Positions 519-39,562 of a stretch of DNA of 55,970 nt are shown piece after piece. Source of the stretch: a bacterium (GTDB taxonomy: Bacteria; Patescibacteriota; Minisyncoccia; UBA6257; 2-01-FULL-56-20); the NCBI GenBank assembly GCA_021777495.1, contig JAJYDL010000001.1:1-55970 (forward strand), given 5' to 3'. The position numbers and the translations under genes were made by a program. How positions within the stretch are numbered: position 1 is the first letter of the stretch; each line of letters starts with the position of its first letter. The notes beneath the pieces are model-generated. The model did no database searches, was not told the DNA's origin, and worked only from the letters and a program-made list of their open reading frames with translations.

Positions 519-1103
519 CTATTGTGCGGGTTCTTCCGTCACCTTCTGGATGTTCGCTCTCCGAAGCAGTTCCCGCTGCAGCCATTCGGCGAGATCCTTG
601 TCGAGGGCCGGCAGGATGCCTTCGCTGTCGTCGTCGCCCGGCTTACCCACGTCCTCGTGGCCCGCGGTCAGGATCAGGATCTTGCTGAGGCCCATCATCT
701 GGAAAGAAAGATCCCGCTCGATGTCCACGTCCTGGATCTGCCGGTACGGGATCGCCACCTCCTCCTTCTCGAGGATGCCCCGCTTGATCTTCAGCGAATC
801 CTCCCCGAGCGCGAACTTATAGTTCGCGTAGATGAGCCATGCGATGAGGAACGTGACGCCGAACACAACAACAAAGAGGATCGCGGACGCCCCGGCGCCG
901 AGCATGGCGTATGCCGCCAGGTTTCCAAACGGCGTCGTCGCAAGCGATTTTTGGCTCCCCACCACGAGAAGCACGGCCGCGAGCATGAAGAAAAGCAGTG
1001 TTGCATTCATCCGCTCGAACACGAACATCCAGAGCGTCTTCCGCCCCAGCGTACGATATTCCTCCTCCGGGATCCCCGGGTGATTTACGGCTCCTTCTTC
1101 CAT
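519..1103 (-). CDS. bacterial PH-domain (bPH_2, YdbS/YdbT-like) membrane protein
   Basis: Two TM helices are followed by KIKRGILEKEEVAIPYRQIQDVDIERDLSFQMMGLSKILILTAG, typical of bPH_2. The track ORF begins at TTG 1178 and would overlap infC. ATG 1103 lies 7 nt downstream of TGgTAAAAT (1111-1119). Confidence 0.8.
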   Translation of the reverse strand: MEEGAVNHPGIPEEEYRTLGRKTLWMFVFERMNATLLFFMLAAVLLVVGSQKSLATTPFGNLAAYAMLGAGASAILFVVVFGVTFLIAWLIYANYKFALGEDSLKIKRGILEKEEVAIPYRQIQDVDIERDLSFQMMGLSKILILTAGHEDVGKPGDDDSEGILPALDKDLAEWLQRELLRRANIQKVTEEPAQ

Positions 1104-1104
1104 T

Positions 1105-1133
1105 TTGATTATTTTACCATATTTCGCTACAAT
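1105..1133 (+). promoter_or_regulatory. sigma70-like promoter for infC
   Basis: TTGATT (1105-1110), 17-nt spacer, TACAAT (1128-1133), about 38 nt upstream of the infC ATT start. Confidence 0.5.
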
Positions 1134-1171
1134 GGAACCAAGCATATTTGTTCGCGTAAGATCCCACTCCC

Positions 1172-2700: not shown

Positions 2701-3288
2701 TTATTTCCTTGCGGAACCTTCCTTTTGCGCGTCACGGTGGGATGATGCGGGCGTCCCTTGGCGGCGTTCGGCGGTGCGATGCGGCGAAGGCGCTTGCTGC
2801 GGCGATTGCGGCTTCCGCCGCGGACGCAGAAAATCGTTCGCCTGCTTCAGCACCTTCTTCGTGTCCACGTACTTCTTCCCTATCACGTTCATCGCATCGT
2901 GGTAGAGGAACCATCCGTACCCGCTGTGCTCCCTCGGGCGGATGATGATCTCCGCTTTGTGCGTCTCGGCAAGGAAAAGGATCACGGTGTCGTAGATCCC
3001 CTGCGCACCGATTTTGAAATAGAAGCGTTCGTAGGCCCTGAAGTTCGGCGCGATCCGCAGCTCGTTCTTCTTGATGCCCGTCTCTTCCTCGAGCTCCCGC
3101 AGTGCGGTATCGATGCTCCGCTCGCCCGGTTCGAAGTGCCCCTTCGGGAAGTTCCAGTAATTCCCCCTGCGATACAAAAGGAGGAACTTCACCCCGTCGC
3201 TCGTCTTCCGATAGACGACGAACCCCGCCACCACCTGCTTTTTCGTGGGGATTTTCCGCGGTTCAGCGGGCTCTTTGGGCAATGTCAT
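2701..3288 (-). CDS. NUDIX hydrolase
   Basis: Nudix box GHFEPGERSIDTALRELEEETGI. The C-terminal tail is basic and Pro-rich. Confidence 0.9.
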   Translation of the reverse strand: MTLPKEPAEPRKIPTKKQVVAGFVVYRKTSDGVKFLLLYRRGNYWNFPKGHFEPGERSIDTALRELEEETGIKKNELRIAPNFRAYERFYFKIGAQGIYDTVILFLAETHKAEIIIRPREHSGYGWFLYHDAMNVIGKKYVDTKKVLKQANDFLRPRRKPQSPQQAPSPHRTAERRQGTPASSHRDAQKEGSARK

Positions 3289-3377
3289 GGGGTAATTCTA
3301 CCATACCCCGCACTCCTGCGCGGTACCTTTTCATATTTTTACATATATGGTATAATGTTTACCAGGAGGGTTCACCG

Positions 3378-3854: not shown

Positions 3855-3866
3855 CGGGGCTTTTTT
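3831..3866 (+). terminator. intrinsic terminator
   Basis: GCCCCGTCAC-10 nt-GTGACGGGGC followed by TTTTTT. Confidence 0.85.
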
Positions 3867-5631
3867 ACCATCCTGCGCTTTTTTTGAGGCGCGCGCGCAT
3901 CTTCGCGAGCGGCCGGGCGTTCACCACGTCATCCCTCGATGCCCATCCGCGCCGCGCCTGCGCGATGCCGTATTCGAGATAGGGAAAGTGGGCGATGGCA
4001 TGCGCGTCGGAATCGATGGAAAGCTGCACGCCGGCTTCCACGCACTTGCGGATATATTCATCCCTGAGATCCGTGCGGTCCGGATAGGCGTCGATCTCGA
4101 GCACGGTGCCGGTGCGTTTTGCCGCCGCGATCACCGCATCCATATCGAGATCGATCGGCGGGCGCCGGTCGATGATGCGGCACGTGGGATGGAAGAGGAT
4201 GTCCACATAGGGATTCTCCATCGCACGGATCACCCGCGCCGTCTGGTCCTTGCGGGAAAGCCCGAAGAACGAGTGCACCGATACTCCCACGACGTCCAGC
4301 TTCGCAAGCACCTCGTCGGGGAGATCGAGCGACCCGTCCTTCAGGATATCGCACTCCGTCCCTTTGAGAACCGTCATCTTCCCCGCAAGCCGCGCATTCA
4401 CCGCATCGATCTCCTTCCATTGCTTCCGTATCCGCACCTCGTCGAGGCCGTGCGTCATCGCAAGCCGCTTCGTATGGTCGGTGACCGCGATATAGGCGAG
4501 TCCCTGCGCCATAGCCGCCTTCGCCATTGCCTCGATCGATGCCGTACCGTCGGTCCAGTCGGTCTGCACCTGGAGGTCCCCTTTGAGGTCCCCGTATTCG
4601 ATGAGCTTCGGGAGTCTGTGCGCAAGCGCCGCCTGCACCTCCCCCGCATTCTCGCGGAGCTCCGGCGCGGGCCAGTCCATGCCGAGGCGGGCGTAGATCT
4701 CCCGTTCATCGTCCCCGGCAATGCGGACCTCCTTCCCTCCGGGGCCCACTTTGAAAAGCCCGTACTCATTGAGCTTCAATCCTTTCTTTACCGCAATCTG
4801 GCGTATCGCCACGTTGTGGTCCTTCGATCCCGTGAAATAATTGAGCGCCGCGCCGTAGGATTCCTTCGGAACCACCCGTAAGTCCACGTTGATGCCCGGA
4901 CGTATCTTTATGGACGACTTCGTCGCGCCGTGCGCGATGACGGAGAGCGTCCCCGGCATTGCGACGAACGCCTCCATGACGGTCCCCGGATCGGACGAGA
5001 TCGCAAGAATATCGATATCGCCGACGGTCTCTTTGCGCCGGCGCGCCGAACCCGCGGCGATCGCGCGTTCCACGCCCGGCACGGCGGCGAGCATCGCCTC
5101 GATCTCCCGCACCTTCGGCATGATGTGCCCCAGCATGAACCGCTGACCGGCCCCTTTTGCGAATCCGATCCCCTTCAAGATCTTCTCCTCGCTCTTTTTT
5201 CCGAATCCCGCGAGCGCCGCGATCTTCCCCGCCTTCGCCGCGGCTTCGAGCTCCTTCAGGTTGCGGATGCCGAGCTCCCTATAGAGCCGCTCCACGGATT
5301 TCGGTCCGAGCCCTTCCACCCGGGAAAGCTCGTCGAGGCGCACCGGCGTCTCTTTCTTGAGCGACTCGTAATACGCGAGCCTGCCCGTCTTCAAAATCTC
5401 TTCGATATGCTCCGCGATCGATGCCCCCACGCCCGGGATCTCCCGCAACGCCTTCACGCCCCCTTTCGCATAGAGGTCGGACGCCTCCTCCTCGAGGCCC
5501 GCCACCGCCTCCGCGGCCTTCTCGTAGGCCCGCGGTTTGAAGGCCACCTTCTGCATCGCGAGATATTCCCCGATCTGGCGGAGCATCTCCGCAATGTCCC
5601 GGTTCGTGGATGCCGTCGGTCTTAAAGCCAT
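3865..5631 (-). CDS. polX: DNA polymerase X family protein with C-terminal PHP domain (PolX)
   Basis: 588 aa. N-terminal HhH/pol-beta-like region (IPGVGASIAEHIEEIL, GSARRRKETVGDIDIL) plus PHP motifs (QTDWTDG, VTDHT, SVHS, DSDAH). Confidence 0.92.
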   Translation of the reverse strand: MALRPTASTNRDIAEMLRQIGEYLAMQKVAFKPRAYEKAAEAVAGLEEEASDLYAKGGVKALREIPGVGASIAEHIEEILKTGRLAYYESLKKETPVRLDELSRVEGLGPKSVERLYRELGIRNLKELEAAAKAGKIAALAGFGKKSEEKILKGIGFAKGAGQRFMLGHIMPKVREIEAMLAAVPGVERAIAAGSARRRKETVGDIDILAISSDPGTVMEAFVAMPGTLSVIAHGATKSSIKIRPGINVDLRVVPKESYGAALNYFTGSKDHNVAIRQIAVKKGLKLNEYGLFKVGPGGKEVRIAGDDEREIYARLGMDWPAPELRENAGEVQAALAHRLPKLIEYGDLKGDLQVQTDWTDGTASIEAMAKAAMAQGLAYIAVTDHTKRLAMTHGLDEVRIRKQWKEIDAVNARLAGKMTVLKGTECDILKDGSLDLPDEVLAKLDVVGVSVHSFFGLSRKDQTARVIRAMENPYVDILFHPTCRIIDRRPPIDLDMDAVIAAAKRTGTVLEIDAYPDRTDLRDEYIRKCVEAGVQLSIDSDAHAIAHFPYLEYGIAQARRGWASRDDVVNARPLAKMRARLKKSAGW

Positions 5632-5685
5632 ACCTCCATTCTACCGCATTGCGCTATTTCTCCGCATTATATAACGCCATTTTTA

Positions 5686-8208: not shown

Positions 8209-8536
8209 AGTAAAGGATAAGGAACGGGACCGCGATCCATATCGCATAGGCGATAAAGAAACATCCTGCGATCGCGAAATCGACGACCGCCCCGAGCGCA
8301 AGGCGGCCCGTCCTGAATATCACCCCGAGGATGCGCCCCACGATCGTGTAGTCCTTATAGAGCGGTTCGAAGAAATGCCGCACCGTCACCCGGAGCGCAA
8401 AGGAGCGATCCGCGGCCGCGAGCGCCGCCATAAGCCTCCGCCCGAACGCCGCCGACCCGTCGATATACCAATGATGGAAAAACGCGTAGATCCGGTAAAA
8501 GAAGCGCCCGAAAAGATAGGTCAGACTGAAATCCAT
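8189..8536 (-). CDS. hypothetical membrane protein
   Basis: 115 aa with a C-terminal TM pair (LALGAVVDFAIAGCFFIAYAIWIAVPFLILYY). It overlaps the Clp-like gene. Confidence 0.7.
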   Translation of the reverse strand: MDFSLTYLFGRFFYRIYAFFHHWYIDGSAAFGRRLMAALAAADRSFALRVTVRHFFEPLYKDYTIVGRILGVIFRTGRLALGAVVDFAIAGCFFIAYAIWIAVPFLILYYAAKTF

Positions 8537-8548
8537 ACCATAATCATA

Positions 8549-9208
8549 TCAGAAAAGCCCCGACGGAGCCCCGGCCGTTCCTTTGCCGCCCTTCTTCGGT
8601 CCGCCGAACGGCGGTGCGGTCACCTTCGGCATCACGGCAGGGGGCGGTTCCGCGGCCATTCGCCCCGAAAGCACGTCGGGGATCTTCCCGAAATCCTCCC
8701 TCAAGACCTTCATCATCTCCGCCGAGCGCAGCGCCGCCGCCGGATGATAGACGGGGAACACCGTTCTCCCGCCCACGAGAAGCGCGCGGCCATGGTCCCT
8801 CGTCATCTTCGCGTCGGGAAGGAAATAGTTCATGGCGAAGCGTCCGAGCGTCACGATAAGCTTCGGCCCGATGGCGTCGATCTGCCTTGTAAGGTAGGGC
8901 TTATACGCCGCGATCTCCCCGGGGAGCGGGTCGCGATTCTCCGGAGGACGCCGCTTCACGATGTTCGTGATGTAGACGTCTTCGCGCTTCCATCCGAGCC
9001 CGCGGATCATGTCATCGAGAAGCCGTCCTCCTCGCCCGACGAAGGGGCGCTTGAGGCGATCTTCGTTCGCACCGGGCGCTTCGCCGATGAACATCACCGC
9101 GCACTCCACGTTCCCCTCGCCGAAGACGAGGTTCGCGGGCCGGAGCGGAAGCGCCGCGTCCACCTCCATCTCCTGTTCGATCTCCGCAAGCGCCGCATGC
9201 GTGTCCAT
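8549..9208 (-). CDS. uracil-DNA glycosylase, family 4
   Basis: Motifs GEAPGANED, FVGRGG and HPAAALR. The C-terminal tail is Pro/Gly-rich. Confidence 0.9.
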   Translation of the reverse strand: MDTHAALAEIEQEMEVDAALPLRPANLVFGEGNVECAVMFIGEAPGANEDRLKRPFVGRGGRLLDDMIRGLGWKREDVYITNIVKRRPPENRDPLPGEIAAYKPYLTRQIDAIGPKLIVTLGRFAMNYFLPDAKMTRDHGRALLVGGRTVFPVYHPAAALRSAEMMKVLREDFGKIPDVLSGRMAAEPPPAVMPKVTAPPFGGPKKGGKGTAGAPSGLF

Positions 9209-9251
9209 GGCTCCATTATATAAGGAGGAGGACCCGGCCGCGAGCGGGCCG

Positions 9252-12823: not shown

Positions 12824-14263
12824 TTACTCCCCTCCCTCACCCGCATCAATATCCGCCTGGCGCCGCTCGAGCACCGTCCTGAACCGCGCGAGCACGGGCG
12901 CAAGCGTACCATCCCCGAGGATCGCCTTCGGATCGACGCTCTCCATGGAAATGCCCGGCACCGCAGGAAGTCCCGATGCGAGGGAGAACATATTCATAAG
13001 GAAGCTTGTGGCATACGATCCCTTCGGAAGGAAGAACGATACCGCCCCCACATTCCCTTCGAACGATGCCTTGCGGACATCCACGCTCTGCAGCGTCACG
13101 CACCGCCGCGATTCCACCCTCACGAACGGGAAATCCCTCCAGGAACGCGCGGGGAGCGAAACGGCGTCCCTCTCCAGATATTCCGCATAGGGCCTCCAGT
13201 CCGCCTTGTCGAACGAGGTGAGGAACGGCAGCTCGAGCGGCACCTCGCCGGAGCGGATGAGCGCCGAAAGTTTTTCATTGAAGAGGAGGCTGTCGTATGC
13301 ATAGAACCAAAGCCGCACCTGGTCCGGCACTTCGTGCAGCGCACCGAGAAAGTCGTCCGGCCTCTCGATGAGGCGCGCCATGAACGTCCGCTCTATCCCG
13401 AAATGATACGGGAACCGGTCGAGCATCTCCCGGATCGCTCCCCAGTCGCCCCATCGCTCTTCCGCATCCTTCCGGATCGCCGCGAAGTACGGCAGCTCTC
13501 GCGGAGCGCGGTGCGTGACGAACATCTTCACGACCTCGCCGTATTTCCCCTGCACGAGAAGGCGGCCGAGTTCGTGCGCGATGAGCCTCGGCGTGCCGAA
13601 GCGCTGAAGATAGAAAAAGTTCCAGAACCCCTCCTCCTTCGCGATCGCAAGCTGCTCTTCCACGAAGGCCTTCGCCGTCCCCGAGAGCGGCTCCGCGAAC
13701 CTGAGCGCGATCGTGAACTCGTTCCCTTTGAGATCCCCGTTCGCCACAACCCCCTTCCCCCTTCGGATATCCCGCAGAAAAAAATTCTCCTCGTTCACGC
13801 GCGAAAGCGCGCCTCCGTCCGCAAGCCCCCGGATGCTGATCGCCTGCGCCGTAAGCGCAAGCCGGTCCTTCACGCCCGCGAACCCGATGTTCCTGCCCTC
13901 GATCCCCAGCGCATGCGCAAGCCGGTCCTTCGCTTCGAGGGTGGATACTCCCACCTTCACAAGGTCCGCATAGTACGTATTCCCCTCCGCCTCCTCGGCC
14001 GGTACGGCAGCCGCATCTTCCTTCGCCGCCGCGGCACGCACCTTTCCCTCGCGGTCCATCTCCTCCACGATGAAGTCCTGCGGCATCAGTTTCAGGTACG
14101 CCACCGGCCTTCCCTCCGGCAGGCCGCCGATGCCCACCGCACGAAGCACCTCATCGTCATCGATCATCGGCGGCCGTACGAAAAGCTCCGGCGCGTTCCT
14201 TCGCTCCGTTTCAAAGAGCGCCCGTTCGCGCTCACGCTCCTCGTCCGTGATCCTCAGCATCAA
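12824..14263 (-). CDS. truD: tRNA pseudouridine(13) synthase TruD
   Basis: TruD motifs FIVEEM and GFAGVKDRLALTAQ. The track start is TTG 14263. ATG 14260 lies 7 nt downstream of TGcGATAAT. Confidence 0.88.
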   Translation of the reverse strand: MMLRITDEERERERALFETERRNAPELFVRPPMIDDDEVLRAVGIGGLPEGRPVAYLKLMPQDFIVEEMDREGKVRAAAAKEDAAAVPAEEAEGNTYYADLVKVGVSTLEAKDRLAHALGIEGRNIGFAGVKDRLALTAQAISIRGLADGGALSRVNEENFFLRDIRRGKGVVANGDLKGNEFTIALRFAEPLSGTAKAFVEEQLAIAKEEGFWNFFYLQRFGTPRLIAHELGRLLVQGKYGEVVKMFVTHRAPRELPYFAAIRKDAEERWGDWGAIREMLDRFPYHFGIERTFMARLIERPDDFLGALHEVPDQVRLWFYAYDSLLFNEKLSALIRSGEVPLELPFLTSFDKADWRPYAEYLERDAVSLPARSWRDFPFVRVESRRCVTLQSVDVRKASFEGNVGAVSFFLPKGSYATSFLMNMFSLASGLPAVPGISMESVDPKAILGDGTLAPVLARFRTVLERRQADIDAGEGGE

Positions 14264-14283
14264 GGGAATTATCGCACAATGCG

Positions 14284-16734: not shown

Positions 16735-17412
16735 TTATCCGTTCGCGCGCCGCGCGAACAGCTTCGCTTCGTCCACCAATATATCCTTCTCGTCCTGGCG
16801 CACGCGGGCAAGCACTTTTCTCACGAGGGATTCCGGATCGGGATCGAACGTCACTTTGCCCATGCCGCGATGCGCGATCTTCAGGATCTTCTCGATCTCA
16901 TCGCTCTCTCCGCCGCTTCCGGTGAGCACCCCCTGGGGCTTCTGGTCCTCGAACGCGATCGTGAACTCATTCAGGGTTCCCACCCGTCCGAACACCGTGA
17001 TCACCGCATCCGAGGAACGGATAAGAAGAAGGTTCCTGCCGGAATAATCGAATCCCGTATAGATGATGAGGTCGTGATACTCGACGGGAAGGCGATAGGT
17101 CTTCACGTGCGCGATCTTCGATACCGCGGGAGAAAGGCCGATCACGATGCCGCCCGCCTCCTTTGCCCCTTTTGCGGCCCAGTACGGCACGCCGGTCGTC
17201 GCGCCCGTCACGAGCACCGCCCCCTGCTTCGCCACCTGACGCCCCACCTCCATCGCCTTTTCAATCGTTCCCGGAGGCGCATAGGTCGTATCCGCCGCGC
17301 CCGAGATGCACACCTTGAACTTGAGATGCGCCTTTCCGAGCTCCGAAAGCGGTTTCTTTTTCTTTACCGCACCCCTCCCTTCTTTTCCGCTTCCGCTTTT
17401 CGCATTTGCCAT
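16735..17412 (-). CDS. TIGR00725/LOG-like Rossmann-fold protein
   Basis: VLVTGATTGVPYWAAKGAKEAGGIVIGLSP ... GRNLLLIRSSDAVITVFGRVGTLNEF matches the LOG/SLOG-type pattern. Confidence 0.75.
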   Translation of the reverse strand: MANAKSGSGKEGRGAVKKKKPLSELGKAHLKFKVCISGAADTTYAPPGTIEKAMEVGRQVAKQGAVLVTGATTGVPYWAAKGAKEAGGIVIGLSPAVSKIAHVKTYRLPVEYHDLIIYTGFDYSGRNLLLIRSSDAVITVFGRVGTLNEFTIAFEDQKPQGVLTGSGGESDEIEKILKIAHRGMGKVTFDPDPESLVRKVLARVRQDEKDILVDEAKLFARRANG

Positions 17413-17499
17413 CGTTATAAGGGTAATTTTTTTATTTGCGCTTTTTTATGATCGGCTTCGCTATTCGTGCCGTAGTGCCATCGCCCCCTGCGGACCGGA

Positions 17500-18870
17500 T
17501 CAAAGCACCACTTCTTCCCCGGGCGCGGGCACCTCCGCGGCAACCCCGAACCGTTCGGTGATCTTCCCCGCGAGCGCCGCGGACGAGGGTCCCTCGCCCT
17601 GCACCACGAACGCCTTTTTGAGGTGCGGCATGCCGCCCACCCAGTCGAGGAGATGCGGCTGATCGGCATGGGCGGAATAACCGGGAATGTCCACCCGCTT
17701 TGCCCGCACCGGGATCGTCTCGCCGAAAATCCTCACCTCCTCCGCTCCCGCGAGAAGCTGCCGGCCCATCGATCCCTCGGCCTGATAGCCGACGAACACG
17801 ATCGTGCTGTTCGGATCCGGAAGATAGCGCATTTCGTGATGGAGGATGCGGCCGCCGTTCGACATGCCCGATCCCGCAATGATGATCTTGGGCGGTTTCA
17901 CGTCGTTTATCTCCTTCGATTGTTCGGTCGTGAGCGTGAGCCGGAGGCCCGGGAAATTGAGGATGTCGTCGCCCGTGCGGGCGATGGCCTGTTCAAGCGC
18001 GTCATTGAAATAATCCTCGTGCTTCTTGTAGACCGCCGTCAGCCTGATCGCAAGCGGGCTGTCGATGAACACGGGCACGCGGGGGATCTCGTTCGCCCGG
18101 AACATCTGGTGGAGCTGGAAGAGGAGGTCCTGCGTGCGCTCCATTGCGAACGCCGGGATCATGAGCGTACCTCCCGCGCGAACGGTCTCGATGATCGCGT
18201 TCCGGAGGAGCTCCTGCCGGCGGCCGACATCCTCATGCACCCGGTCGCCGTAGGTCGATTCCACGAGGCAATACTCCGCGTCCGGCACCGTCTCCGTCGG
18301 CCTGATGATCGGCGCGGGAGAGTTCCCGAGATCGCCCGAGAACGCGATCGTCTTCCCTTCCGCTTCGGCGCGCACATGCACGATCGCCGAACCGAGGATA
18401 TGCCCCGCATCGTAGAGCTCCACGGTGAACGCCGGCTTCTCCCCCGATCCGCCCACCGTCACCTTCTCGTGATAGCGTACTCCCTTCCACTGCCGCATCA
18501 CCTCCCCTATCTCCACGTTGTTGTAAAGCGGCGGCCGTCCCTCGCGCTTCGCCTCGTCCTTCAGGAGATGTTCCGAATCGATGAGCATGAGCTCCGCGAA
18601 ATCCTCGGTGGCCGTCGTCGCGTAGATCGGCCCCCGGTATCCCGCCTTCACAAGGGACGGCAGCCGTCCGATGTGGTCCAAATGGGAATGCGTGATGAAC
18701 ACCGCCGCGATCTCCTTCACGTCGTACGGAAACGGCTCGAAGTTCTCCCGCTCGGCATAGTGGCTTCCCTGATGGAGGCCGCAGTCGATCATTATCTTCG
18801 TACCTTCCGATTCAAGCACGTAATTCGCGCCGGTCGCCTCGCCGCAGCCTCCGTAAAAGGTGAGTTTCAT
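17500..18870 (-). CDS. MBL-fold beta-CASP family RNA-metabolising hydrolase
   Basis: HSHLDHIG, beta-CASP motifs and a C-terminal RNA-specificity domain (YSAHADQPHLL). ATG 18870 (MKLTFYGG) lies 6 nt downstream of TGgTATAAT. Confidence 0.88.
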   Translation of the reverse strand: MKLTFYGGCGEATGANYVLESEGTKIMIDCGLHQGSHYAERENFEPFPYDVKEIAAVFITHSHLDHIGRLPSLVKAGYRGPIYATTATEDFAELMLIDSEHLLKDEAKREGRPPLYNNVEIGEVMRQWKGVRYHEKVTVGGSGEKPAFTVELYDAGHILGSAIVHVRAEAEGKTIAFSGDLGNSPAPIIRPTETVPDAEYCLVESTYGDRVHEDVGRRQELLRNAIIETVRAGGTLMIPAFAMERTQDLLFQLHQMFRANEIPRVPVFIDSPLAIRLTAVYKKHEDYFNDALEQAIARTGDDILNFPGLRLTLTTEQSKEINDVKPPKIIIAGSGMSNGGRILHHEMRYLPDPNSTIVFVGYQAEGSMGRQLLAGAEEVRIFGETIPVRAKRVDIPGYSAHADQPHLLDWVGGMPHLKKAFVVQGEGPSSAALAGKITERFGVAAEVPAPGEEVVL

Positions 18871-18936
18871 ATGGAAATTATACCACGGACGGCGCATCCG
18901 CAGGGCCGGGCCGCAGGCGCATCCCTCGCGCCGCCT

Positions 18937-21428: not shown

Positions 21429-21467
21429 AAGGATATTATATAAGCCCCGGGGCTTCCGGTATATCCC

Positions 21468-21495
21468 TTGCAAAAATCCCCGTTTCCTCTATAAT
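21468..21495 (+). promoter_or_regulatory. rpsT promoter (leaderless-type)
   Basis: TTGCAA (21468-21473), 16 nt, TATAAT (21490-21495), then 7 nt to ATG 21503. Confidence 0.55.
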
Positions 21496-21502
21496 AGTTC
21501 CC

Positions 21503-22533: not shown

Positions 22534-22551
22534 ACTGTAAGAATAGGGGGT

Positions 22552-28178: not shown

Positions 28179-29150
28179 TCAGAATACCCGCAGGAGAAGC
28201 TGTATGAGCACGAGACCGATGACGCCGAGGATGGCGACATAGGAGAACACGGATGCGTTCGGGTATCCGCTCTTGGGAACGGTCGTCGTGGGCGTGTACT
28301 CCTCGAGCCGTTCGTTCCCCGCGGCGTCGAACGCGCGCACCGCGATCGTATCGGTGAGCGATTGATCGGTGAGGAGATAGGGGCTGATCGCCCGCTTCCA
28401 ATCCCACTGGTCCTCCGGAAGCTTGAGATCGGAGGGCGGGATCTCGGCAATCTCGTAGTGATCGATGCCCGTCTGCTTGTCCACGGTCGAAAACGTGGCA
28501 AACCATTGATTATTGAAAAGCGAAGGGTCGCGATAGACGCCGATTGCGAAGGGCTCGGGCGGAACAGTATCGTCTTCGAGCGCCTTCTGCCAGGTATCCA
28601 CCGGCGCAAATTGTCCCTGGAGTATCTCCGCATATTTCGCGCCGGCGGTCGTAAGAGGCGCGATCGTTCCCTCGCCGTCGTTCAGCGTCGCCTGAGTGCC
28701 CGGAAGAAATGCGAGCAGTGCGCTCTCGGGAGCCGTCGAGGAGCCCGCGGCGGTCGATGTGGCGAAGCGGAAATAGATCGTCGCGAGCTTGTTGCTGAGC
28801 GAGGGATCTCCGGGGACGCGCCCGCAATATCCTCCGGGAAGCCCTCCCACGAACGAGATGATGCCGTACTGCGAATAGATCGTGGGGTTCTTGACCCACA
28901 TGGAGAATATGGAATCTCCGTCGCTTACGGCGACCGCCTGGAGGACGTCCGCGGGATATGCGATATCCACTTCGGCCGCATTGATGCATTGCGACGGGCC
29001 CGTATCGAGGCGGACGTCCACCGGGAACGTGACTCCCGGCGGATATTTGCCCGTTGCCGGATTGATATAGATCTGCGCCGCATGCGCAAAGAGAGGCATG
29101 ATGCCCGCATATACCATGGCTCCAAGAACGACCCCGACCCTCTTCTTCAT
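28179..29150 (-). CDS. cohesin-like domain protein, signal peptide plus C-terminal TM anchor
   Basis: IYINPATGKYPPGVTFPVDVRLDT...INAAEVDIAYPADVLQAVAVSDGDSIFSMW follows a cohesin-type pattern. C-terminal helix SVFSYVAILGVIGLVLIQLLL. Confidence 0.75.
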   Translation of the reverse strand: MKKRVGVVLGAMVYAGIMPLFAHAAQIYINPATGKYPPGVTFPVDVRLDTGPSQCINAAEVDIAYPADVLQAVAVSDGDSIFSMWVKNPTIYSQYGIISFVGGLPGGYCGRVPGDPSLSNKLATIYFRFATSTAAGSSTAPESALLAFLPGTQATLNDGEGTIAPLTTAGAKYAEILQGQFAPVDTWQKALEDDTVPPEPFAIGVYRDPSLFNNQWFATFSTVDKQTGIDHYEIAEIPPSDLKLPEDQWDWKRAISPYLLTDQSLTDTIAVRAFDAAGNERLEEYTPTTTVPKSGYPNASVFSYVAILGVIGLVLIQLLLRVF

Positions 29151-29178
29151 ACCTAAAAGTATATCACACGAGGCGGCA

Positions 29179-30336
29179 TTATCCCGTCCAGTAATACAGA
29201 AGAATGCTCAGGTCCGGGAGGTCCACTATGCCGTCGCCGTTCAGGTCCGCGGTGGGGTTGCTTGTCCCCCAGTAATAGAGGAGTATCGAGAAATCCGCAA
29301 GGTTCACCTTGCCGTCGCCGTTCAGGTCCGCAAGCAGCTTCTTGCTCGGCGTACCGCTGCCCACATAGAAGGGTACTGCCTGGCTTATCGTGCTCCGCAA
29401 TAACGCGCCGTTCTCCGTGGTGATGAAATCCGCATCCACCGTATGATAGGCGTCGTTCTGGAGCACCGAAGTGTCCACGGGCACCGCCCATCCTCCCATG
29501 GAATTCGTGGTTGTCGTCACTATAATGTTCCCGCCCGAATGCACGTGCACTTCGATCGTTGACGAAGGCACGGATTCTCCCGACACCGTCACCGTTCCCC
29601 CTTTTGCCACCTGGCGTTTGTCGATGGATATCGTCGGGGGCAGAAGTTCGCCGGAAATCGTGGTCGCGGCGTCCGCGGTGACGGTGAAGGTCGTCGTGAG
29701 CGCGATGGACTTGAGGCCCGTCGCATCCTGCGCCCAGATGCCGAAGGTATATACCCCGGGAGAGATGTTCGTCGTCGAGAAATAAAAATTCGCGTTGGAA
29801 TCCGCCTGTACGACCCCGATCGTCTGGCCGTCCTGGAGGATGTTCACGCTTGCGCCCGGATACGCCTGCCCCTGAATGATCACGGTCGTCGGATTCGGTG
29901 CGGTGTAGCTCCCCGGAGAATAGCCGAACGAAGGCGCCGGCGCGGGACCCGGTCCCGGCAGCGGTGCGAGCGACGTGATCTGGCATGTCGCGGAGCATCC
30001 CGATCCCGCCACCCCGTTCATCGCGCCCGCATCGCACTGCTCTCCGTACTGGGGCTGGAGGATCCCGTCGCCGCAGTACGGGGCCCATGCCCGGCACCCG
30101 GGCATGCACTGGCGGTTGGCCGATGATGTGGAATACTGCCCCGTGTTCGTTCCCGTATCGCACACCTCGGTGGGAGCCTGCACGATCCCGTCCCCGCATA
30201 CGCTGATCGTCACCGTGGTCGTCGCATAGCTTTGCGCCCGCACCGGCGCCGCCGGGGATGCAAACAGGAACAGTGCCGCCGCGGCTGCGGCGACGGAAAA
30301 GATGATTATGGTACGCAGGAATACCCGGCGGATCAT
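29179..30336 (-). CDS. secreted protein: Cys-rich repeats, Ig-like domains and a C-terminal dockerin
   Basis: CGDGIVQ..EVCD and CGDGILQ..EQCD repeats. Duplicated dockerin segment DLNGDGKVNLADFSILLYYWG ... DLNGDGIVDLPDLSILLYYW. Confidence 0.85.
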   Translation of the reverse strand: MIRRVFLRTIIIFSVAAAAAALFLFASPAAPVRAQSYATTTVTISVCGDGIVQAPTEVCDTGTNTGQYSTSSANRQCMPGCRAWAPYCGDGILQPQYGEQCDAGAMNGVAGSGCSATCQITSLAPLPGPGPAPAPSFGYSPGSYTAPNPTTVIIQGQAYPGASVNILQDGQTIGVVQADSNANFYFSTTNISPGVYTFGIWAQDATGLKSIALTTTFTVTADAATTISGELLPPTISIDKRQVAKGGTVTVSGESVPSSTIEVHVHSGGNIIVTTTTNSMGGWAVPVDTSVLQNDAYHTVDADFITTENGALLRSTISQAVPFYVGSGTPSKKLLADLNGDGKVNLADFSILLYYWGTSNPTADLNGDGIVDLPDLSILLYYWTG

Positions 30337-30345
30337 ATGCGTATA

Positions 30346-31350
30346 TTATGCTCTCGGCGCGCGCGGAGGGGGCGGCGTCGGAACGCCCTTCCTTCTTCCG
30401 CGCCGGCGGAACAACCCCCGGATGCCCACATACATCGCCCAAAGCATGAGCAGTATCCCCGCAAGGACCGCAAAGGTAATAAGCTTCTCCTGCCATGGCA
30501 ATACGAGGAAGTTGTAGGGGACATATCCCGGGATGCTTCCGGGTGGCAGCACGCTCAGATCGAGCGTACCCTGTCCGATGAGATCGCTGTCATCGCGTCC
30601 GTAGATCTGATAGAAAACCTTGTACGTACCCTGGGGCAGATAGGTGGGCATCTCCGCGGTCACGGTCTTCGTCTGGAACGGGTCGACGCTCGCAAGCCAG
30701 TTGGTATTCTGCTCCACCTCGAGCACCTTCTGGGTAAGGTAGTCGCTGTACGTGAACACCACTCTGTAAGGACTCCCTGAAATGTTCCCATCGTTCTCGA
30801 TATCCATATTAAAGAGAACCTTGCCCGGGAAATGCATCCAAAGCCATGTGAATCCCTGCTCCGCGTTCGTCATCGATACTCGCCGCACCTTGAAATCCAC
30901 ATTCTTCTGGTTTATCACGCGGAGGTTCACGTCGATCTGCGCGCCGATCGTAAGGCCGACGGTCCCCGCTGCGGGACCGTTCATGGGAGAGACGACTACC
31001 TGGATATTCCCCTGGTACTGTCCGAGCTTCGCATCGCTCGGCACATTCACGCTCACGATCATCGGCATCTCCTGCGTGCCGGACGGCATCGCGAACTGCG
31101 TGCCCTTGTCGATGGAAATCCAGCCGTCCGCCCCCGGAACATTCACCGTCACCTTTGCGGTGAGGTCCTGATCCGGCGTTCCGCGCACAAGGAGGATCTT
31201 CTGTTCGTAGTGCGAACCCGGCGCAAGCGCGTCATTCGTCACGTAGGGAGGAGTGATGCCGAATCCTTCGGCGTTCACGCGATGCACGCCGAATGAAAAG
31301 CCGGCGCACACAAGAAGCGCCGCCGCCGCTATAAAGTTCATCTTCCTCAT
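30346..31350 (-). CDS. CscA/DUF916-DUF3324-like surface protein with C-terminal TM anchor (paralog 1)
   Basis: Signal peptide. Shares motifs with 46075, 48490 and 49595 (G.Y.G.I; N[DT]G[ND][IV]; LPW just before the TM helix). Basic cytoplasmic tail. Confidence 0.8.
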   Translation of the reverse strand: MRKMNFIAAAALLVCAGFSFGVHRVNAEGFGITPPYVTNDALAPGSHYEQKILLVRGTPDQDLTAKVTVNVPGADGWISIDKGTQFAMPSGTQEMPMIVSVNVPSDAKLGQYQGNIQVVVSPMNGPAAGTVGLTIGAQIDVNLRVINQKNVDFKVRRVSMTNAEQGFTWLWMHFPGKVLFNMDIENDGNISGSPYRVVFTYSDYLTQKVLEVEQNTNWLASVDPFQTKTVTAEMPTYLPQGTYKVFYQIYGRDDSDLIGQGTLDLSVLPPGSIPGYVPYNFLVLPWQEKLITFAVLAGILLMLWAMYVGIRGLFRRRGRRKGVPTPPPPRAPRA

Positions 31351-33375: not shown

Positions 33376-34578
33376 TTATTTGTATCTGATGGCCTCGAGC
33401 GGACTTATGGATGAAGCCCTGCGCGCCGGGAAAATCCCCGTAATGAAGCCTACGATCGCCGAGAAAAGCGTGATAAACCCGAGGAATGTGAGGGGAAAGG
33501 CGAAAAGCGCCACCGCAGCGCCGCCGAAGTGCGTTGCCAATAGATTCAATAGATAATTGATGATGAGACCTCCGGCGATGCCTATGGCCATCCCCGTCAT
33601 GCCCCCCAGGAACCCGACCACGACCGCCTCCGCGAGGAAAAGGAACTGGATATCGCGGGGCGAACCGCCGATCGTACGCATGACGCCGATCTCCCCCGTG
33701 CGCTCAAGGAGCGTCACCGTCATGGTATTCACCATGCCGATCGCCGACACGATGAGCGCGATGCCGCCGAACCCTGCAAGGACCCATTGGACGCCGGTGA
33801 AGATCTGATTCGCCTGATCCACCGTCTTCGAGAGCGCCGACACCACATACCCATCCTTCACGATGGCGGCCTGGACGCCGCCGAGATTGCCGCTCGCGTT
33901 CACGCGCACCTGGACCTTGTCGTATTGCGGGATCCCCACCTGCGAGGAAAGCGTGGCAAGGGGAATCATCGCATAGATGGAGGCGCTGTCGTTCGTCACC
34001 CCCGTCACGGTGAAGTTCCCGTTCAGGGGCACCTGCTCGCTCTGCCCCCCGCCCTGCGCCTGCGTCACGATCCGGAACGATACCGGCTTCCCGATGATCG
34101 CCTTCGGATCGCTCACGCCGAAAAGCTGCAGCGCGGCGCTCGAAAGGATGACGTCGTTCGCATCCGAAGGCTGGTCGCTGAACTGGCTTCCTGCCGCCAT
34201 GGAAATGCCCGCGTATTTGAAATACGACGCCTGCGCCCCCTCGAGGTCCGTGTTCGCCGAAAGGCCGTTGTAGGTGATGAGCGACTGGAAGGTCGCGAGC
34301 GGCGATACGTCCTGGACGTTCGGGATCGCCTTGAACTTCGCAAGCGCGTTGTCGTCGAGCGTCACGGCGCTCGTTGCCGGCGGCGTAACGGTGAGGCTGA
34401 GGAGCGTATCGCCGAACACGATCTTCTCGAGCAGGATGTTCTGAAGGCCGAAACCGAGACCTACGAGCATCACGACCGCGGCGGTACCCACGCCCATGCC
34501 GAGGATCGTAAGCCATGTCCTTGCGGGATTGGTCTTGAACATCCTCGTGGAAAGCTTCAATGAATCGGCGACTCTCAT
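33376..34578 (-). CDS. ABC transporter permease, MacB/FtsX-like
   Basis: The N-terminal TM helix is followed by an extracytoplasmic domain of about 230 aa and then a C-terminal 3-TM FtsX domain. Confidence 0.88.
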   Translation of the reverse strand: MRVADSLKLSTRMFKTNPARTWLTILGMGVGTAAVVMLVGLGFGLQNILLEKIVFGDTLLSLTVTPPATSAVTLDDNALAKFKAIPNVQDVSPLATFQSLITYNGLSANTDLEGAQASYFKYAGISMAAGSQFSDQPSDANDVILSSAALQLFGVSDPKAIIGKPVSFRIVTQAQGGGQSEQVPLNGNFTVTGVTNDSASIYAMIPLATLSSQVGIPQYDKVQVRVNASGNLGGVQAAIVKDGYVVSALSKTVDQANQIFTGVQWVLAGFGGIALIVSAIGMVNTMTVTLLERTGEIGVMRTIGGSPRDIQFLFLAEAVVVGFLGGMTGMAIGIAGGLIINYLLNLLATHFGGAAVALFAFPLTFLGFITLFSAIVGFITGIFPARRASSISPLEAIRYK

Positions 34579-34597
34579 GGTAATAGTATAGAACGGT

Positions 34598-35918: not shown

Positions 35919-37400
35919 TTATTTTTTGGCGCCCCCCGAGAAGTTTCCGAGCCATCCGAACGTTCCCTGGAAGTTCTGCAGGATGATGTCCACGATGCTT
36001 TTCTGCTGCTGCGGCGTGAGGAGCACGTAATCCTCCGAGCTTGTCGTATTCCCGTCCACGTCGGTACAGGTAACCCAATATTTATAGACCGTCGCGGGAG
36101 AGAATGTCGTGACGACCTCCACGTGCTTCGTGACGGGGACCGTCTCCGCCGTCGTCGTCACGACATCCGCGCCGGCCCCGCTCGAATACGAAAGGAAGCA
36201 CGTCGCGGGCTCGTCGGTCGCCCACGAGATGACCGTCTGCACGGTGGTATCCTGTCCGGGGTAGAGCGTGGAATCGTTGCTCACCTGCGAGATCACCGGA
36301 GGATAGAGGTTCTTCGTCGTCACAAAATAAACGGGGTCGCTCTTCACCGTATCCCCCGCCTGGTTCTGGGCGACAATGACGGCCGAATAGCGCGTCTGAT
36401 AGACGAGCCCCGAGATCTGGAGAATGTGCGTCGTGAGGTACGATGGGTCGCCGATCGAAAGCGATTTATTGGTCGCCATGTCGGTGTACACGATCTCCCC
36501 CGCCGACGGCATGGGCGTGCCCCAGCTTATCGTGACATCATGCTCGCCGACCGTCACCACGTGAGGATTGATGATCTGCGGCAGAACGGATTTCGTCGTG
36601 AAGGTGAGATCCGGGCTTTCTCCCGGCGCGCCGATCCCTCCCGCGCGCGAGGACACCATGTAGTGATATTCCGTGGAAGGCGAAAGTCCATAGATCGTCA
36701 CCGTGTGCGTCTTCCCCTGCCCGTTCTGGTCCGTTTCCTGCCGCGGATAAGGGTTCGCGCTCGAAGGGTTGTACTCCGCGGCAGAAGCAATGAACACGGT
36801 GCCATCCGCGCTCTGGTCGGTGTTCCAGGTCACCGTCACGTTGTCCGTGCCGATCGTGAGCTGGGGCACGCCCAGAATGTTCGGCGGCCCGATGTTCGCT
36901 TTGGCCTGCTGGTTCAGCGCCCCCGCAATCGCCTCGAGTGCCTGGGTGCTCGTGATCTGCTGGATGATCGAGAGCGCCTTTGCCGAAAGCTGCTGCTGCT
37001 GCGGATTCGTGATGCTCGAGAGGGTCGAAAGATCGACGGTGCTCGAGGTCGTGAATGTATAATCGCCGGAGACGTGCTGGTTGCCGTTCGCGTCGGTGGA
37101 ACGGATGCGGAAATAGTACGTCGTCCCCGGATCGAGGTTCGGAATGACGACCGAGTGCTGGGTGCCGAGGGGCCCCTGATTTCTTATACCGCAGTAGTTC
37201 GTGTCCTGGCTGAAATTCACGAAACTGTCGGTGTTGGAGTCCGTGGTCCACGTGACCGTAGTCGAGGTCGCAGTCACGCCCGCAACGGCCACGTTCGAGA
37301 TGTTCGGCGACGTGTCCGCGAGCGCCCGCACGACGACCGCCGCGGACACAGCCGCGGCGCCCGCAAGGACCCCTATGGCGAACAGCGAGCGCGCGTTCAT
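35919..37400 (-). CDS. secreted protein with four FN3-like repeats
   Basis: Four repeats of the type TVTWTTD...Y.FRI.S.D..GN....DYTFTT. ATG 37400 (MNARSLF) lies 6 nt downstream of TGgTATCAT; the track start is 37418. Confidence 0.85.
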   Translation of the reverse strand: MNARSLFAIGVLAGAAAVSAAVVVRALADTSPNISNVAVAGVTATSTTVTWTTDSNTDSFVNFSQDTNYCGIRNQGPLGTQHSVVIPNLDPGTTYYFRIRSTDANGNQHVSGDYTFTTSSTVDLSTLSSITNPQQQQLSAKALSIIQQITSTQALEAIAGALNQQAKANIGPPNILGVPQLTIGTDNVTVTWNTDQSADGTVFIASAAEYNPSSANPYPRQETDQNGQGKTHTVTIYGLSPSTEYHYMVSSRAGGIGAPGESPDLTFTTKSVLPQIINPHVVTVGEHDVTISWGTPMPSAGEIVYTDMATNKSLSIGDPSYLTTHILQISGLVYQTRYSAVIVAQNQAGDTVKSDPVYFVTTKNLYPPVISQVSNDSTLYPGQDTTVQTVISWATDEPATCFLSYSSGAGADVVTTTAETVPVTKHVEVVTTFSPATVYKYWVTCTDVDGNTTSSEDYVLLTPQQQKSIVDIILQNFQGTFGWLGNFSGGAKK

Positions 37401-37461
37401 GTTGTTATGATACCACACGCCGCGGCGGCGTTCCGCGCCGCACCCATCCCTCCTTCGCTCT

Positions 37462-39519
37462 TTACGGCCACGGCAACGGGAGCTTCACGCCGACAAACGA
37501 ATTCATTCCCGTATATGTGGTCGCCATCTGTCCCGCGGGGATCGCGATGCCCCAATAGAACGTGGAGCTTTCCACCGTGGTCGTGGATACGGGCTTCGGA
37601 AGATCGATCGCCACCGTCGATCCCGGGTTCGGGAGCAGCGCCGTCCCCGACGCATAGGATATCGCGGAGGTCGCGAAATGCTGCTGTCCCACGGGAATGC
37701 TGAACGAGCTGTTCACCATGTTTGTGCCATAAAGATCCACGTTCATCGCAACGTTCCCCATCGACTGGATCACCGCCGTAGGGCCGAGGCTTGCGGTACT
37801 CGAGCCCTGCGTCAGATTGCCGTAATTTATCGTCGAGGTCGTTTCGAACGCGAGAAGCGAAAGCAGCGGCACGCCCGTCGAAGAGGCCGTGCCCGTGGCG
37901 CCCGCGGAGTCCACGGCGAGCATCGAGGCCGACCAGGAATCCCCCGCCCATGGCGTCGATGCGTCCGTCGGCTGGGCGAAATACCAGACGTGGAAACTGC
38001 AGGTTACGTTGCAGGATGTTCCCGCACAGCCGCTGAACGAACAGTCGCTCGGCGCACCTTGATAGCAATCGTTCGGATCGGGTGTGCATGCCGGCCCGAG
38101 GCTCGTGCGATAGAGCGTGCTCGTCACCGTCTGGATGTCGGTAAACCCGTTACCGTCGCTCACCGTTGCCGTGGCCGTGATGAGCGTCGTCGTCCCCTCG
38201 ATAAGGGCGATGCTCTGCCCCCCATTCAGGCTGACGGGGCCTATCGTCGGAGGAACATTTCCGATGGTGACTTCCGGATATGCGGCATAGGACGCAAACG
38301 GCGTACCGTTTGATTCCACGGCCCGGAAGCAGAACGTGGATCCTCCGGGCGCGCTGTTGTCGATGAGCGCGAAGTCCCACTTCCCGTCCTCTCCCGGAAG
38401 GATCGCGCCCTGCGAGTTCGTGAAGGTGTTCGCCTCCACATAGGTCTGATTCACGATGGTGTTTGTTCCGTCGACGGGATCGGTCGACGTAGGTACGAGC
38501 GGATCCCCGTTCGCGGGGGTCGGGTTGTTATAGAACTCGATATACCCCGTCGAGGTCGCCACATCGGCGTACGCCCCCGTCGGTGCCGCGCATGTTCCCG
38601 TTCCCATGTCGGCCATCTGCAATTTAAATGAGCGATTTCCCGCGGCGAGCTGGTTCGTCGCCACATTGACGAGCATGCGGAGGCGGAAAGGCGCCGTAAG
38701 CGATGCGAGCACCGTCGACGCGTTCTGCAATGCGAGCGGAGGCCCCACGCTCGCGCTGTCCGTATTCGAAAACCATCGGAATGCGTTCTGGCTGAACGTG
38801 ATCTGCGCTTTGAAGCTCACGATCTGCCCTATCCATGCACCGGACGCCGCCGCGGTGCCGACGGTCGAATAGGTCCCCGTTGCGTTCACCACCCGGTCCG
38901 CGCCGCTGTAGGTTGCGCGCGAACCGTGACTGCCGTTCGCGTTCGAAAAATCGTTTTCTTTGGTAAAGGAGTTGCTCCACGAAGAAAATGTTGTTTGCGC
39001 AATGATCGTGGTGGCCGCGAAAAGCAGTTCGTCCGGCTGGACCGTCGTGATTGCCGCTCCGTTCGTCGCCGTACCCGTACCCGCTGTCGATGTCGCTTGA
39101 TCAAGGGGGTTTACTGCCGATAATCCGCTGTATTCATAAATATGGAGGCCCAACTGCAGCGAAGATGCCGTAGTCACGGTAACCGCGGTAGGCTCGCCGG
39201 TTCCCGCCACCTTATAAAATATCGCCTGGCTCGGAGTTCCTGCGACGTTGAGCGCCACCGACCATCCGGACGGCACATTGATCCCGGTATTTCCGCCTGC
39301 GCCAAGTACGGCAATGAGGAGGTCGCCCGCGGTAGGCGTCGTCCCGAATGTCGCGGTCACGGTGTTCGCGCCGCCTCCCGCGCTCGTATTGCTCGCCGTC
39401 TGGATGAGCGTCGTCGTGGCGCGCGCGAAGGGCCACAGTACGAACACGCGGCTCACCGCGAGCCATGCGAGGAGCAGGCCGGCAAGGACTATGCCGAAAG
39501 AATAGATGCGGCGCATCAT
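37462..39519 (-). CDS. large secreted surface protein, one adhesin-type module plus C-terminal tail type II (..YTGMNSFVGVKLPLPWP)
   Basis: 685 aa with a signal anchor. Module motifs are FRWFSNTDS, FRLRM, FKLQM, FCFRAV and YAAYPEV. The C-terminus is homologous to that of 31425-33293. Confidence 0.85.
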   Translation of the reverse strand: MMRRIYSFGIVLAGLLLAWLAVSRVFVLWPFARATTTLIQTASNTSAGGGANTVTATFGTTPTAGDLLIAVLGAGGNTGINVPSGWSVALNVAGTPSQAIFYKVAGTGEPTAVTVTTASSLQLGLHIYEYSGLSAVNPLDQATSTAGTGTATNGAAITTVQPDELLFAATTIIAQTTFSSWSNSFTKENDFSNANGSHGSRATYSGADRVVNATGTYSTVGTAAASGAWIGQIVSFKAQITFSQNAFRWFSNTDSASVGPPLALQNASTVLASLTAPFRLRMLVNVATNQLAAGNRSFKLQMADMGTGTCAAPTGAYADVATSTGYIEFYNNPTPANGDPLVPTSTDPVDGTNTIVNQTYVEANTFTNSQGAILPGEDGKWDFALIDNSAPGGSTFCFRAVESNGTPFASYAAYPEVTIGNVPPTIGPVSLNGGQSIALIEGTTTLITATATVSDGNGFTDIQTVTSTLYRTSLGPACTPDPNDCYQGAPSDCSFSGCAGTSCNVTCSFHVWYFAQPTDASTPWAGDSWSASMLAVDSAGATGTASSTGVPLLSLLAFETTSTINYGNLTQGSSTASLGPTAVIQSMGNVAMNVDLYGTNMVNSSFSIPVGQQHFATSAISYASGTALLPNPGSTVAIDLPKPVSTTTVESSTFYWGIAIPAGQMATTYTGMNSFVGVKLPLPWP

Positions 39520-39562
39520 GGTGTCATTTTACCACGCTTGCGCACGCGCCCGTCCCCTCTTC

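Follow-up and report, generated by a model that had tools for sequence, protein, structure and literature searches.

Contig JAJYDL010000001.1 of assembly GCA_021777495.1 (positions 1 to 55,970 of the forward strand; hereafter the window, meaning this whole stretch of 55,970 nucleotides [nt]) comes from a bacterium of the Patescibacteriota (GTDB lineage Minisyncoccia; UBA6257; 2-01-FULL-56-20) in which the messages of about one third of the genes very probably start at the start codon itself, as judged from the placement of −10-like promoter hexamers. A preliminary description of the window had proposed that many of its genes are transcribed as leaderless mRNAs with the transcription start site (TSS) at or next to the A of the ATG. 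This proposal finds strong support in a sharp peak of the distance between hexamer and start codon, in the promoter features of the hexamers (an upstream TGn, no −35 element and a Y-A-T start element) and in their conservation at orthologous genes. We consider it highly likely that these TAnnnT and TGnTAnnnT boxes are −35-independent extended −10 promoters giving leaderless mRNAs at genes with a spacer of 6 or 7, where the spacer is the number of nucleotides between the last base of the −10 hexamer and the start codon. Patescibacteria make up a large share of bacterial diversity, and to our knowledge almost nothing is known about how they initiate transcription and translation.

In the assembly, which comprises 40 contigs and 700 kb (genome G000; ca. 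60% GC; estimated completeness 75.6%), the window is contig C35. Comparisons were made with 22 further genomes of the same genus (labels up to G022; 0.6 to 1.0 Mb each), including 800 kb of genome G013 (53% GC). Relatives of the RuvA protein encoded in the window assign it to the Parcubacteria/Paceibacteria of the Patescibacteria; they are found under the names "Candidatus Parcubacteria", "Paceibacterota" and "Minisyncoccia", while Liptonbacteria and Giovannonibacteria are more distant.

A sharp distance peak between −10 boxes and start codons

Within the window, the bare pattern TANNNT-N6-ATG occurs 16 times compared to 7.3 ± 2.7 times in shuffled sequences and TANNNT-N7-ATG 14 times compared to 7.6 ± 2.9, so that the excess at this level is modest and the real signal is the coincidence of the matches with gene starts. 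Because the pattern exceeds shuffles only about twofold here, the whole genome was tested. A motif-first count made without gene calls found 449 occurrences of TGNTANNNT (TGnTAnnnT) in the 700 kb, of which 70 have an ATG at spacer 6, while 33, 18 and 20 have one at spacers 7, 8 and 9, respectively, over a background of ca. 6 to 7 per offset; of the 70 ATGs at spacer 6, 65 open a reading frame of at least 80 codons. No spacer peak after TGNTANNNT was seen genome-wide for GTG, TTG or CTG. Genes (677 in total) were called with our own simple hexamer-based caller, one mode of which chooses start codons by coding potential alone, and these coding-only starts have a TANNNT at spacer 6 in 88 cases and at spacer 7 in 45, over a background of ca. 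10. The genome-wide distance distribution, set beforehand as the check on which the leaderless proposal was to stand or fall, hence shows a sharp peak at 6 to 7 nt from either starting point.

A second mode of the caller admits any plausible ATG start and favors the leaderless-type start where one is available, a bias that is controlled by decoys only. Counted in this way, TANNNT stands at spacer 5 to 9 in 220 of 677 genes (32%) as compared to 11 of 496 matched internal decoy ATGs (2%), and a weight matrix puts the excess at ca. 215 to 232 genes. Overall, about one gene in three has the layout, and ca. 40% of those with room for a promoter do. Its frequency depends on context, reaching 42% of genes with a divergent upstream neighbor and 39% of those behind gaps of 11 to 60 nt versus 14% where the gap is at most 10 nt. 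Many of the genes that lack the layout run into or directly adjoin the gene upstream (in 24 of them the overlap is 4 nt, as long as an ATGA junction), and others have −10 boxes 10 to 27 nt upstream with leaders that are often A-rich and devoid of Shine-Dalgarno (SD) motifs. These remaining genes appear either to lie inside operons, in many cases with an ATGA overlap, or to have short SD-less leaders of ca. 5 to 25 nt behind similar −10 boxes. In the window, clear extended −10 boxes lie 10 to 19 nt before the ATG, with short or A-rich SD-less leaders, at 9917-9950, 15204-15230 and 24711-24730 (all minus strand; e.g., TGGTATAAT-acggacaacaccaaaaaaa-ATG at 9917), and such starts look like a second class with a short leader.

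Probable extended −10 promoters without −35 elements

Aligned on their hexamer, the 102 spacer-6 sites of the genome read T(64%) G(72%) n T A t a a T. A TGn precedes the hexamer in 56 of these 102 sites (55%) and in 27 of 61 spacer-7 sites as compared to 5.9% of all TANNNT, while no position 17 to 25 nt upstream of the 102 spacer-6 hexamers carries more than 0.17 bit. Since the sites lack a −35 element, classical −35/−10 scans miss nearly all of them; two such scans gave 9 and 11 matches and are barely above the ca. 5.8 obtained in shuffles.

Downstream of the hexamer, 91% of spacer-6 genes have a C or T directly before the ATG (position −1), so that a Y-A-T is centered on the seventh base behind the box. 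Where the spacer is 8 or 9, a C-A dinucleotide is seen at this same seventh position, now 2 or 3 nt before the ATG, and the purine start signal hence moves with the −10 box and not with the start codon. Moreover, many of the 34 tRNA genes of the genome have a TAnnnT box ca. 9 to 25 nt before the mature 5' end (for example those at 10545-10616 of contig C14 and 9904-9975 of contig C28), and the lack of a fixed distance fits a transcription signal. We note in passing that boxes so close to the mature tRNA end would imply very short 5' leaders for removal by RNase P.

Taken from the sequence side, these features fit an extended −10 promoter and not an RNA-level ribosome-binding motif. Extended −10 (TGn) promoters function without a −35 element, and the likeness here lies in the TGn one base upstream of the hexamer combined with the absence of −35 information. 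The Y-A-T centered on the seventh base likewise matches the published Y(−1)R(+1)Y(+2) element for transcription start, at which initiation is most efficient 7 to 8 bp after the −10 element (PMC12641261), with the difference that the start element here doubles as the start codon, the A-T of the ATG being R(+1)Y(+2).

We therefore picture initiation at these genes as follows, with each step being a proposal. RNA polymerase with the housekeeping (sigma-70-type) sigma factor would bind the extended −10 box without a −35 element and start transcription 7 nt (in some cases 8 nt) downstream of its final T. At spacer-6 and spacer-7 genes, this position would be the A of the ATG following a pyrimidine (the Y-A-U start element) and yield an mRNA with a 5'-AUG and no leader, while spacer-8 and spacer-9 genes would have leaders of 2 to 3 nt. 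The 5'-terminal AUG would then be bound directly by a ribosome with initiator tRNA, as in the 70S/IF2-type initiation that is established for leaderless mRNAs of other bacteria.

Conservation within the genus and across the phylum

The peak recurs in the 800 kb of G013, in which spacers 6, 7 and 8 account for 57, 22 and 19 sites over a background of ca. 5. Among 342 reciprocal best hits between G000 and G013 (median identity 64%), the G013 orthologue has the layout for 72% of the leaderless-type genes of G000 compared to 26% of the remaining genes (odds ratio 7.3, p = 8e-17). When TGNTANNNT-N6-ATG is counted against the reversed form of the pattern in the same genome, it is in excess in our genome (70 vs. 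3) as well as in G013 (81 vs. 10), G006 (64 vs. 9) and G018 (74 vs. 7), while E. coli K-12 shows no excess (72 vs. 68). The gene ruvA has a −10 box 6 to 9 nt upstream of its ATG in most of 33 Parcubacteria loci inspected, Giovannonibacteria included. Across 150 genomes of the phylum, the median ratio of pattern to control is 2.4, with ratios of at least 2 in 92 genomes, of at least 3 in 53 and of about 1 in a few families; a sample of genomes of the order gave similar ratios. By this measure, the leaderless-type signal is widespread in the phylum, though variable.

Start sites in the window

The preliminary description had listed 12 start codons with their hexamers, TGn extensions and spacer lengths, all of which match the DNA exactly. 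Eleven lie on the minus strand and one (21503) on the plus strand:

1101..1119, minus: TGgTAAAAT-N7-ATG of a bPH_2-domain protein gene (519-1103; Pfam); the coding-only start is also 1103, and the N-terminus aligns residue 1 to residue 1 with that of the G013 orthologue, which has a weak box only.
3286..3303, minus: TGgTAGAAT-N6-ATG of a NUDIX hydrolase gene (2701-3288; Pfam); TGcTACAAT-N6-ATG and a 1-to-1 N-terminus in the G013 orthologue, identical site in G018.
5629..5643, minus: TAGAAT-N6-ATG of a PolX/PHP DNA polymerase gene (3865-5631; Pfam); TAGAAT-N6-ATG in the G013 orthologue.
8534..8548, minus: TATGAT-N6-ATG of a gene for 115 amino acids (8189-8536), the box starting directly behind the upstream gene's stop codon; the G013 orthologue reads TATTAT-N6-ATG and shares the tatggt spacer.
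9206..9220, minus: TATAAT-N6-ATG of a uracil-DNA glycosylase family gene (8549-9208; Pfam); TATAAT-N6-ATG in the G013 orthologue (cggTATAAT, without TGn).
14258..14276, minus: TGcGATAAT-N7-ATG of a TruD pseudouridine synthase gene (12824-14260; Pfam), for which the coding-only start is 14260; a search of 800 kb of G013 gave no orthologue.
18868..18885, minus: TGgTATAAT-N6-ATG of a beta-CASP/RMMBL RNase gene (17500-18870; Pfam); TATACT-N8-ATG in the G013 orthologue, with MKLTFYGG aligned to MQLTFYGG.
21426..21440, minus: TATAAT-N6-ATG of ruvA (20835-21428); residue 1 matches profile position 1 of Pfam RuvA_N.
21490..21505, plus: TATAAT-N7-ATG of rpsT, encoding S20 (21503-21778; Pfam S20 match from residue 4); TATAAT-N7-ATG in the G013 orthologue.
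34576..34590, minus: TATACT-N6-ATG of a MacB/FtsX-type ABC permease gene (33376-34578; Pfam); the start is less certain because the called start of the G013 orthologue differs (query residue 28 aligns with subject residue 1).
37398..37415, minus: TGgTATCAT-N6-ATG of a gene for a secreted protein with fn3 and purple-acid-phosphatase N domains (35919-37400); TAAAAT-N9-ATG and a 1-to-1 N-terminus in the G013 orthologue, identical site in G018.
39517..39534, minus: TGgTAAAAT-N6-ATG of a gene for a surface protein of 685 amino acids (37462-39519), for which the coding-only start is 39519; identical site in G018, and only a paralogue but no orthologue matched in the 800 kb of G013 searched.

The hexamer at 14260, GATAAT, is a one-mismatch −10 box and thus not a TAnnnT. 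GGAG(G) motifs inside the spacers of 5631 (ggaggt) and 9208 (ggagcc) are only 1 to 2 nt from the ATG and therefore too close for SD function. A scan of the window added five sites of the same type that were absent from the earlier list:

22531..22545, minus: TATTCT-N6-ATG, start of the gene at 21742-22533.
29148..29166, minus: TGaTATACT-N7-ATG, start of the gene at 28179-29150.
30334..30348, minus: TAATAT-N6-ATG, start of the gene at 29179-30336.
47176..47194, minus: TGaTACGAT-N7-ATG, start of the gene at 46075-47178.
17410..17425, minus: TACCCT-N7-ATG (weaker), start of the gene at 16735-17412.

Could the promoters be real, yet many of the chosen ATGs not be the true starts, so that translation begins further downstream on leadered mRNAs? 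The called start of the orthologue of 34578, which lies 27 residues further in, and the caller's preference for leaderless-type starts speak for this option, as do 55 of the 220 genes with the layout in which the coding-only start differs from the leaderless-type candidate. In the other 165 of 220, however, the two are the same ATG, and the coding-only choice equals the listed start in eight of the 12 cases above. The Pfam domains of RuvA and S20 begin at residue 1 to 4, the N-termini of G000/G013 pairs coincide exactly in 59 of 96 cases, and for eight of the 12 listed genes (3288, 5631, 8536, 9208, 18870, 21428, 21503 and 37400) the G013 orthologue combines a box at spacer 6 to 9 with an aligned N-terminus. 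A promoter at random distance from the true start would also not yield a peak that is sharp to 1 nt and confined to ATG. We regard the misplacement of many starts as very unlikely. The choice of 1103 over 1178, 18870 over 18897 and 37400 over 37418, made in the preliminary description from box spacing, is backed in each case by the residue 1-to-1 alignment with the G013 orthologue, although coding potential alone would favor 37418 over 37400.

Two of the listed genes, ruvA and rpsT, are divergent, and both of their promoters lie back to back in leaderless-type arrangement within the 74-bp gap at 21429-21502. Immediately upstream of the ruvA −10 box, this gap contains the GC-rich palindrome AAGCCCCGGGGCTT, and a hairpin at 18883-18903 lies just upstream of the TGGTATAAT box of the beta-CASP gene and overlaps its TGG; both may be terminator-promoter fusions.

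Absence of a Shine-Dalgarno signal, and of the anti-Shine-Dalgarno sequence in the genus

Throughout the genome, gene starts are not preceded by a positional peak of GGAGG, AGGAG, GGAG or GAGG, which before the ATG follow only the three-base periodicity of coding sequence, and SD-like words precede 8.3% of gene starts versus 6.9% of internal decoys, which is no excess. No SD peak was found in the 800 kb of G013 either. On the side of the ribosome, all ten 16S genes found in same-genus genomes lack CCUCC and end in GGATCAATTAAACT, i.e., ...GTGGATCA-ATTAAACT compared to ...TTGGATCA-CCTCCTTA in E. coli. Their GGATCA is followed by ATTAAACT instead of CCTCCTTA, and a conserved AUUAAAC tail stands where CCUCCUUA is expected, leaving nothing to pair with AGGAGG. 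None of the 23 genomes of the genus, our own included, contains the ribosomal protein uL1 (PF00687), which is present in 14 of 14 control genomes. The 16S tail without CCUCC and the absence of uL1 together place the genus within the Parcubacteria described as having neither an anti-SD sequence nor uL1 (Tsurumaki, Saito, Tomita and Kanai, RNA 2022; PMC9297842). Loss of bS21 was considered as a further correlate and rejected, since bS21 is present in 22 of the 23 genomes. A replacement of SD pairing by pairing with the new 16S tail was also rejected, since the words complementary to that tail, AGTTTAAT and parts of it, are not enriched at any position before the ATG in either G000 or G013. Upstream of the 16S genes of the relatives, no extended −10 box was seen within 160 nt, with the 5'-end motif of the gene being located in only four of ten loci. 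Among the 150 genomes of the phylum, a 16S end with CACCTCC was found in 64, and the frame pattern used for this assignment matched in 66 only; the leaderless-type ratio does not differ between genomes with CACCTCC and the rest (medians 2.29 and 2.41, p = 0.43), a comparison in which a missing 16S gene is not separable from a missing anti-SD sequence.

The preliminary description had further assigned strong AGGAGG-type sites to genes with longer leaders (1741, 3364, 11424 and 22609). The four sequences are indeed present but do not reflect a rule, given the lack of a genome-wide positional peak, their decoy-level frequency and the lack of an anti-SD sequence in the genus: such sites cannot act by pairing with this 16S tail and are outside any general rule. 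Three AGGAGG-like sites (1695-1760, 3328-3380 and 22569-22622, all plus strand) lie in short leaders before reading frames that are small or unannotated. The promoter-like sites in front of these leaders differ from the leaderless promoters in having a −35-like hexamer:

1695-1724, plus: TTGACA-18-TATTAT, promoter-like, preceding the open reading frame (ORF) 1751-1948 (no Pfam match).
3328-3356, plus: TTTTCA-17-TATAAT, promoter-like, preceding the ORF 3378-3854 (no Pfam match).
22569-22597, plus: TTGCCG-17-TATCAT, promoter-like, preceding the ORF 22620-22949 (no Pfam match).

A tblastn search of G013 found no relatives of the ORFs 1751-1948 and 3378-3854.

A lineage without an anti-SD tail needs some other initiation signal, and the U-A-n-n-n-U box could in principle be an RNA-level, non-SD ribosome-binding or translation-enhancer element 6 to 7 nt before the AUG of longer mRNAs, similar to the "group B" of GeneMarkS-2 as in Bacteroidota. 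Its distance from the start codon is typical of ribosome-binding sites, and some boxes lie only 4 to 12 nt past the stop codon of the upstream gene. Such an element would, however, not be expected to carry a TGn 1 nt upstream in about half of its sites, to set the pyrimidine-A rule by its own position instead of that of the AUG, to precede tRNA genes at variable distance or to be depleted at tight operon junctions (14% vs. ca. 40%) where it should stand upstream of all genes alike, and no enriched word is complementary to the new 16S tail. We consider this explanation very unlikely. Chance or a base-composition artefact compounded by selective reading in the preliminary description, for which only the ca. 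twofold excess within the window speaks, is next to impossible and was rejected given the ca. tenfold genome-wide peak, the gap between real genes and decoys, the reversed-pattern control, the lack of an excess in E. coli and the conservation between orthologues.

Several points nonetheless weigh against leaderless initiation from extended −10 promoters as we propose it. The TSS positions, and with them transcription start at the A as well as the mode of ribosome loading, are inferred from sequence only, and our assembly contains no 16S gene, so that the loss of the anti-SD sequence is deduced from the ten same-genus genomes. A C at position −1 or −2 is also enriched in genes not classed as leaderless, meaning that this signal may in part reflect the surroundings of start codons in general. 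Genes and their starts were called with a simple caller that prefers leaderless-type starts, a bias for which the decoys are the sole control. Finally, ca. two thirds of the genes lack the layout, and the mechanism of their initiation is outside the explanation.

Relation to known systems

Leaderless architecture as such is of a known kind. The "group C" genomes of GeneMarkS-2 (Actinobacteria and Deinococcus-Thermus) carry a Pribnow-type box 6 to 8 nt before the starts of operon-first genes, with ca. 25% to 50% of transcripts predicted to be leaderless and genes inside operons lacking the signal (Lomsadze et al. 2018, PMC6028130). Studies cited therein mapped leaderless genes by experiment, one in Mycobacterium tuberculosis (Cortes 2013) and one in Deinococcus deserti (de Groot 2014). 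The boxes described here are similar in their spacer of 6 to 7 with a tail to 9 and in their preference for operon-first genes. They differ in that the remaining genes of group C use SD sites, whereas we find no SD signal in a genus without an anti-SD sequence, in that the promoters are mostly of the TGn type without −35 element, and in that only ATG shows a peak. In mycobacteria, by comparison, GTG is used at leaderless starts as well. The lineage, too, is different, as Patescibacteria are not mentioned in the survey (PMC6028130). The archaeal "group D" (haloarchaea and Sulfolobus) is comparable in that many mRNAs begin at the start codon and the role of SD sites is small, but it uses a TATA box ca. 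26 nt upstream (PMC6028130) instead of a bacterial −10 box at 6 to 7 nt.

The genus shares with the Parcubacteria subgroup of Tsurumaki et al. (PMC9297842) the lack of CCUCC behind GGATCA (10 of 10 genomes) and of uL1 (23 of 23). That paper covers the ribosome and contains neither the word "leaderless" nor an account of gene starts, to which our analysis adds the gene-side counterpart for one genus: ca. one third of genes that would start at the promoter and no use of SD sites. Our literature searches found no paper on leaderless genes in Patescibacteria, the Candidate Phyla Radiation (CPR), Saccharibacteria or Parcubacteria, no TSS data for the lineage and no paper linking the loss of the anti-SD sequence or uL1 to leaderless starts. 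For annotation, the −10-box rule can replace the SD rule in start choice, and gene finders built around SD sites will put starts in the wrong place. The boxes also offer compact and predictable modules of promoter plus start codon for gene expression in CPR bacteria.

A non-AUG start of infC

The infC gene for IF3 (1128-1678, plus strand) has no ATG, GTG or TTG start. Its IF3_N Pfam domain is complete only when read from the ATT at 1172 (94 bits, compared to 56 bits from the ATG at 1253), and the aligned N-terminus begins with ATT, ATA or ATC in 22 of the 23 genomes of the genus. In 12 of these 22, the codon lies exactly 6 to 7 nt after a (sometimes extended) −10 box, typically as TGaTATAAT-N6-AT(A/T), and three genomes from other families of the order have the same layout with ATC. 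In our own genome, the nearest box is TAAGAT at 9 nt from the ATT, and TACAAT is 38 nt away. The box spacing in the relatives suggests a leaderless infC message with a non-AUG start codon.

A leaderless or near-leaderless infC message starting with AUU would be unusual for bacteria, and we found no description of one in a literature search combining infC, leaderless and AUU. Autoregulation of IF3 at a non-AUG codon is classical. It is a possible, if tentative, view that this clade without uL1 and anti-SD sequence has abandoned SD pairing, that the TSS sets the translation start of first genes, and that infC is translated from a leaderless message (or one with a leader of 2 to 4 nt) beginning with AUU, AUA or AUC. 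If true, leaderless initiation would here be joined to the classical autoregulation of IF3 at a non-AUG codon, a combination otherwise known from mitochondria and unexpected under E. coli rules. Mammalian mitochondria have leaderless mRNAs with AUA or AUU start codons (PMC11775629), and the likeness is limited to infC with its 5'-terminal AUU, AUA or AUC on an apparently leaderless message in many relatives. The mitochondrial system is a different one with other factors, and the infC box in our own genome is 9 nt from the ATT, not 6.

Other features of the window

An Rfam scan of the window identified one tRNA only and no known leader RNAs. On the minus strand at 10262-11239, we found an IS30-like transposase gene with an HTH_38 domain and a weak rve match.

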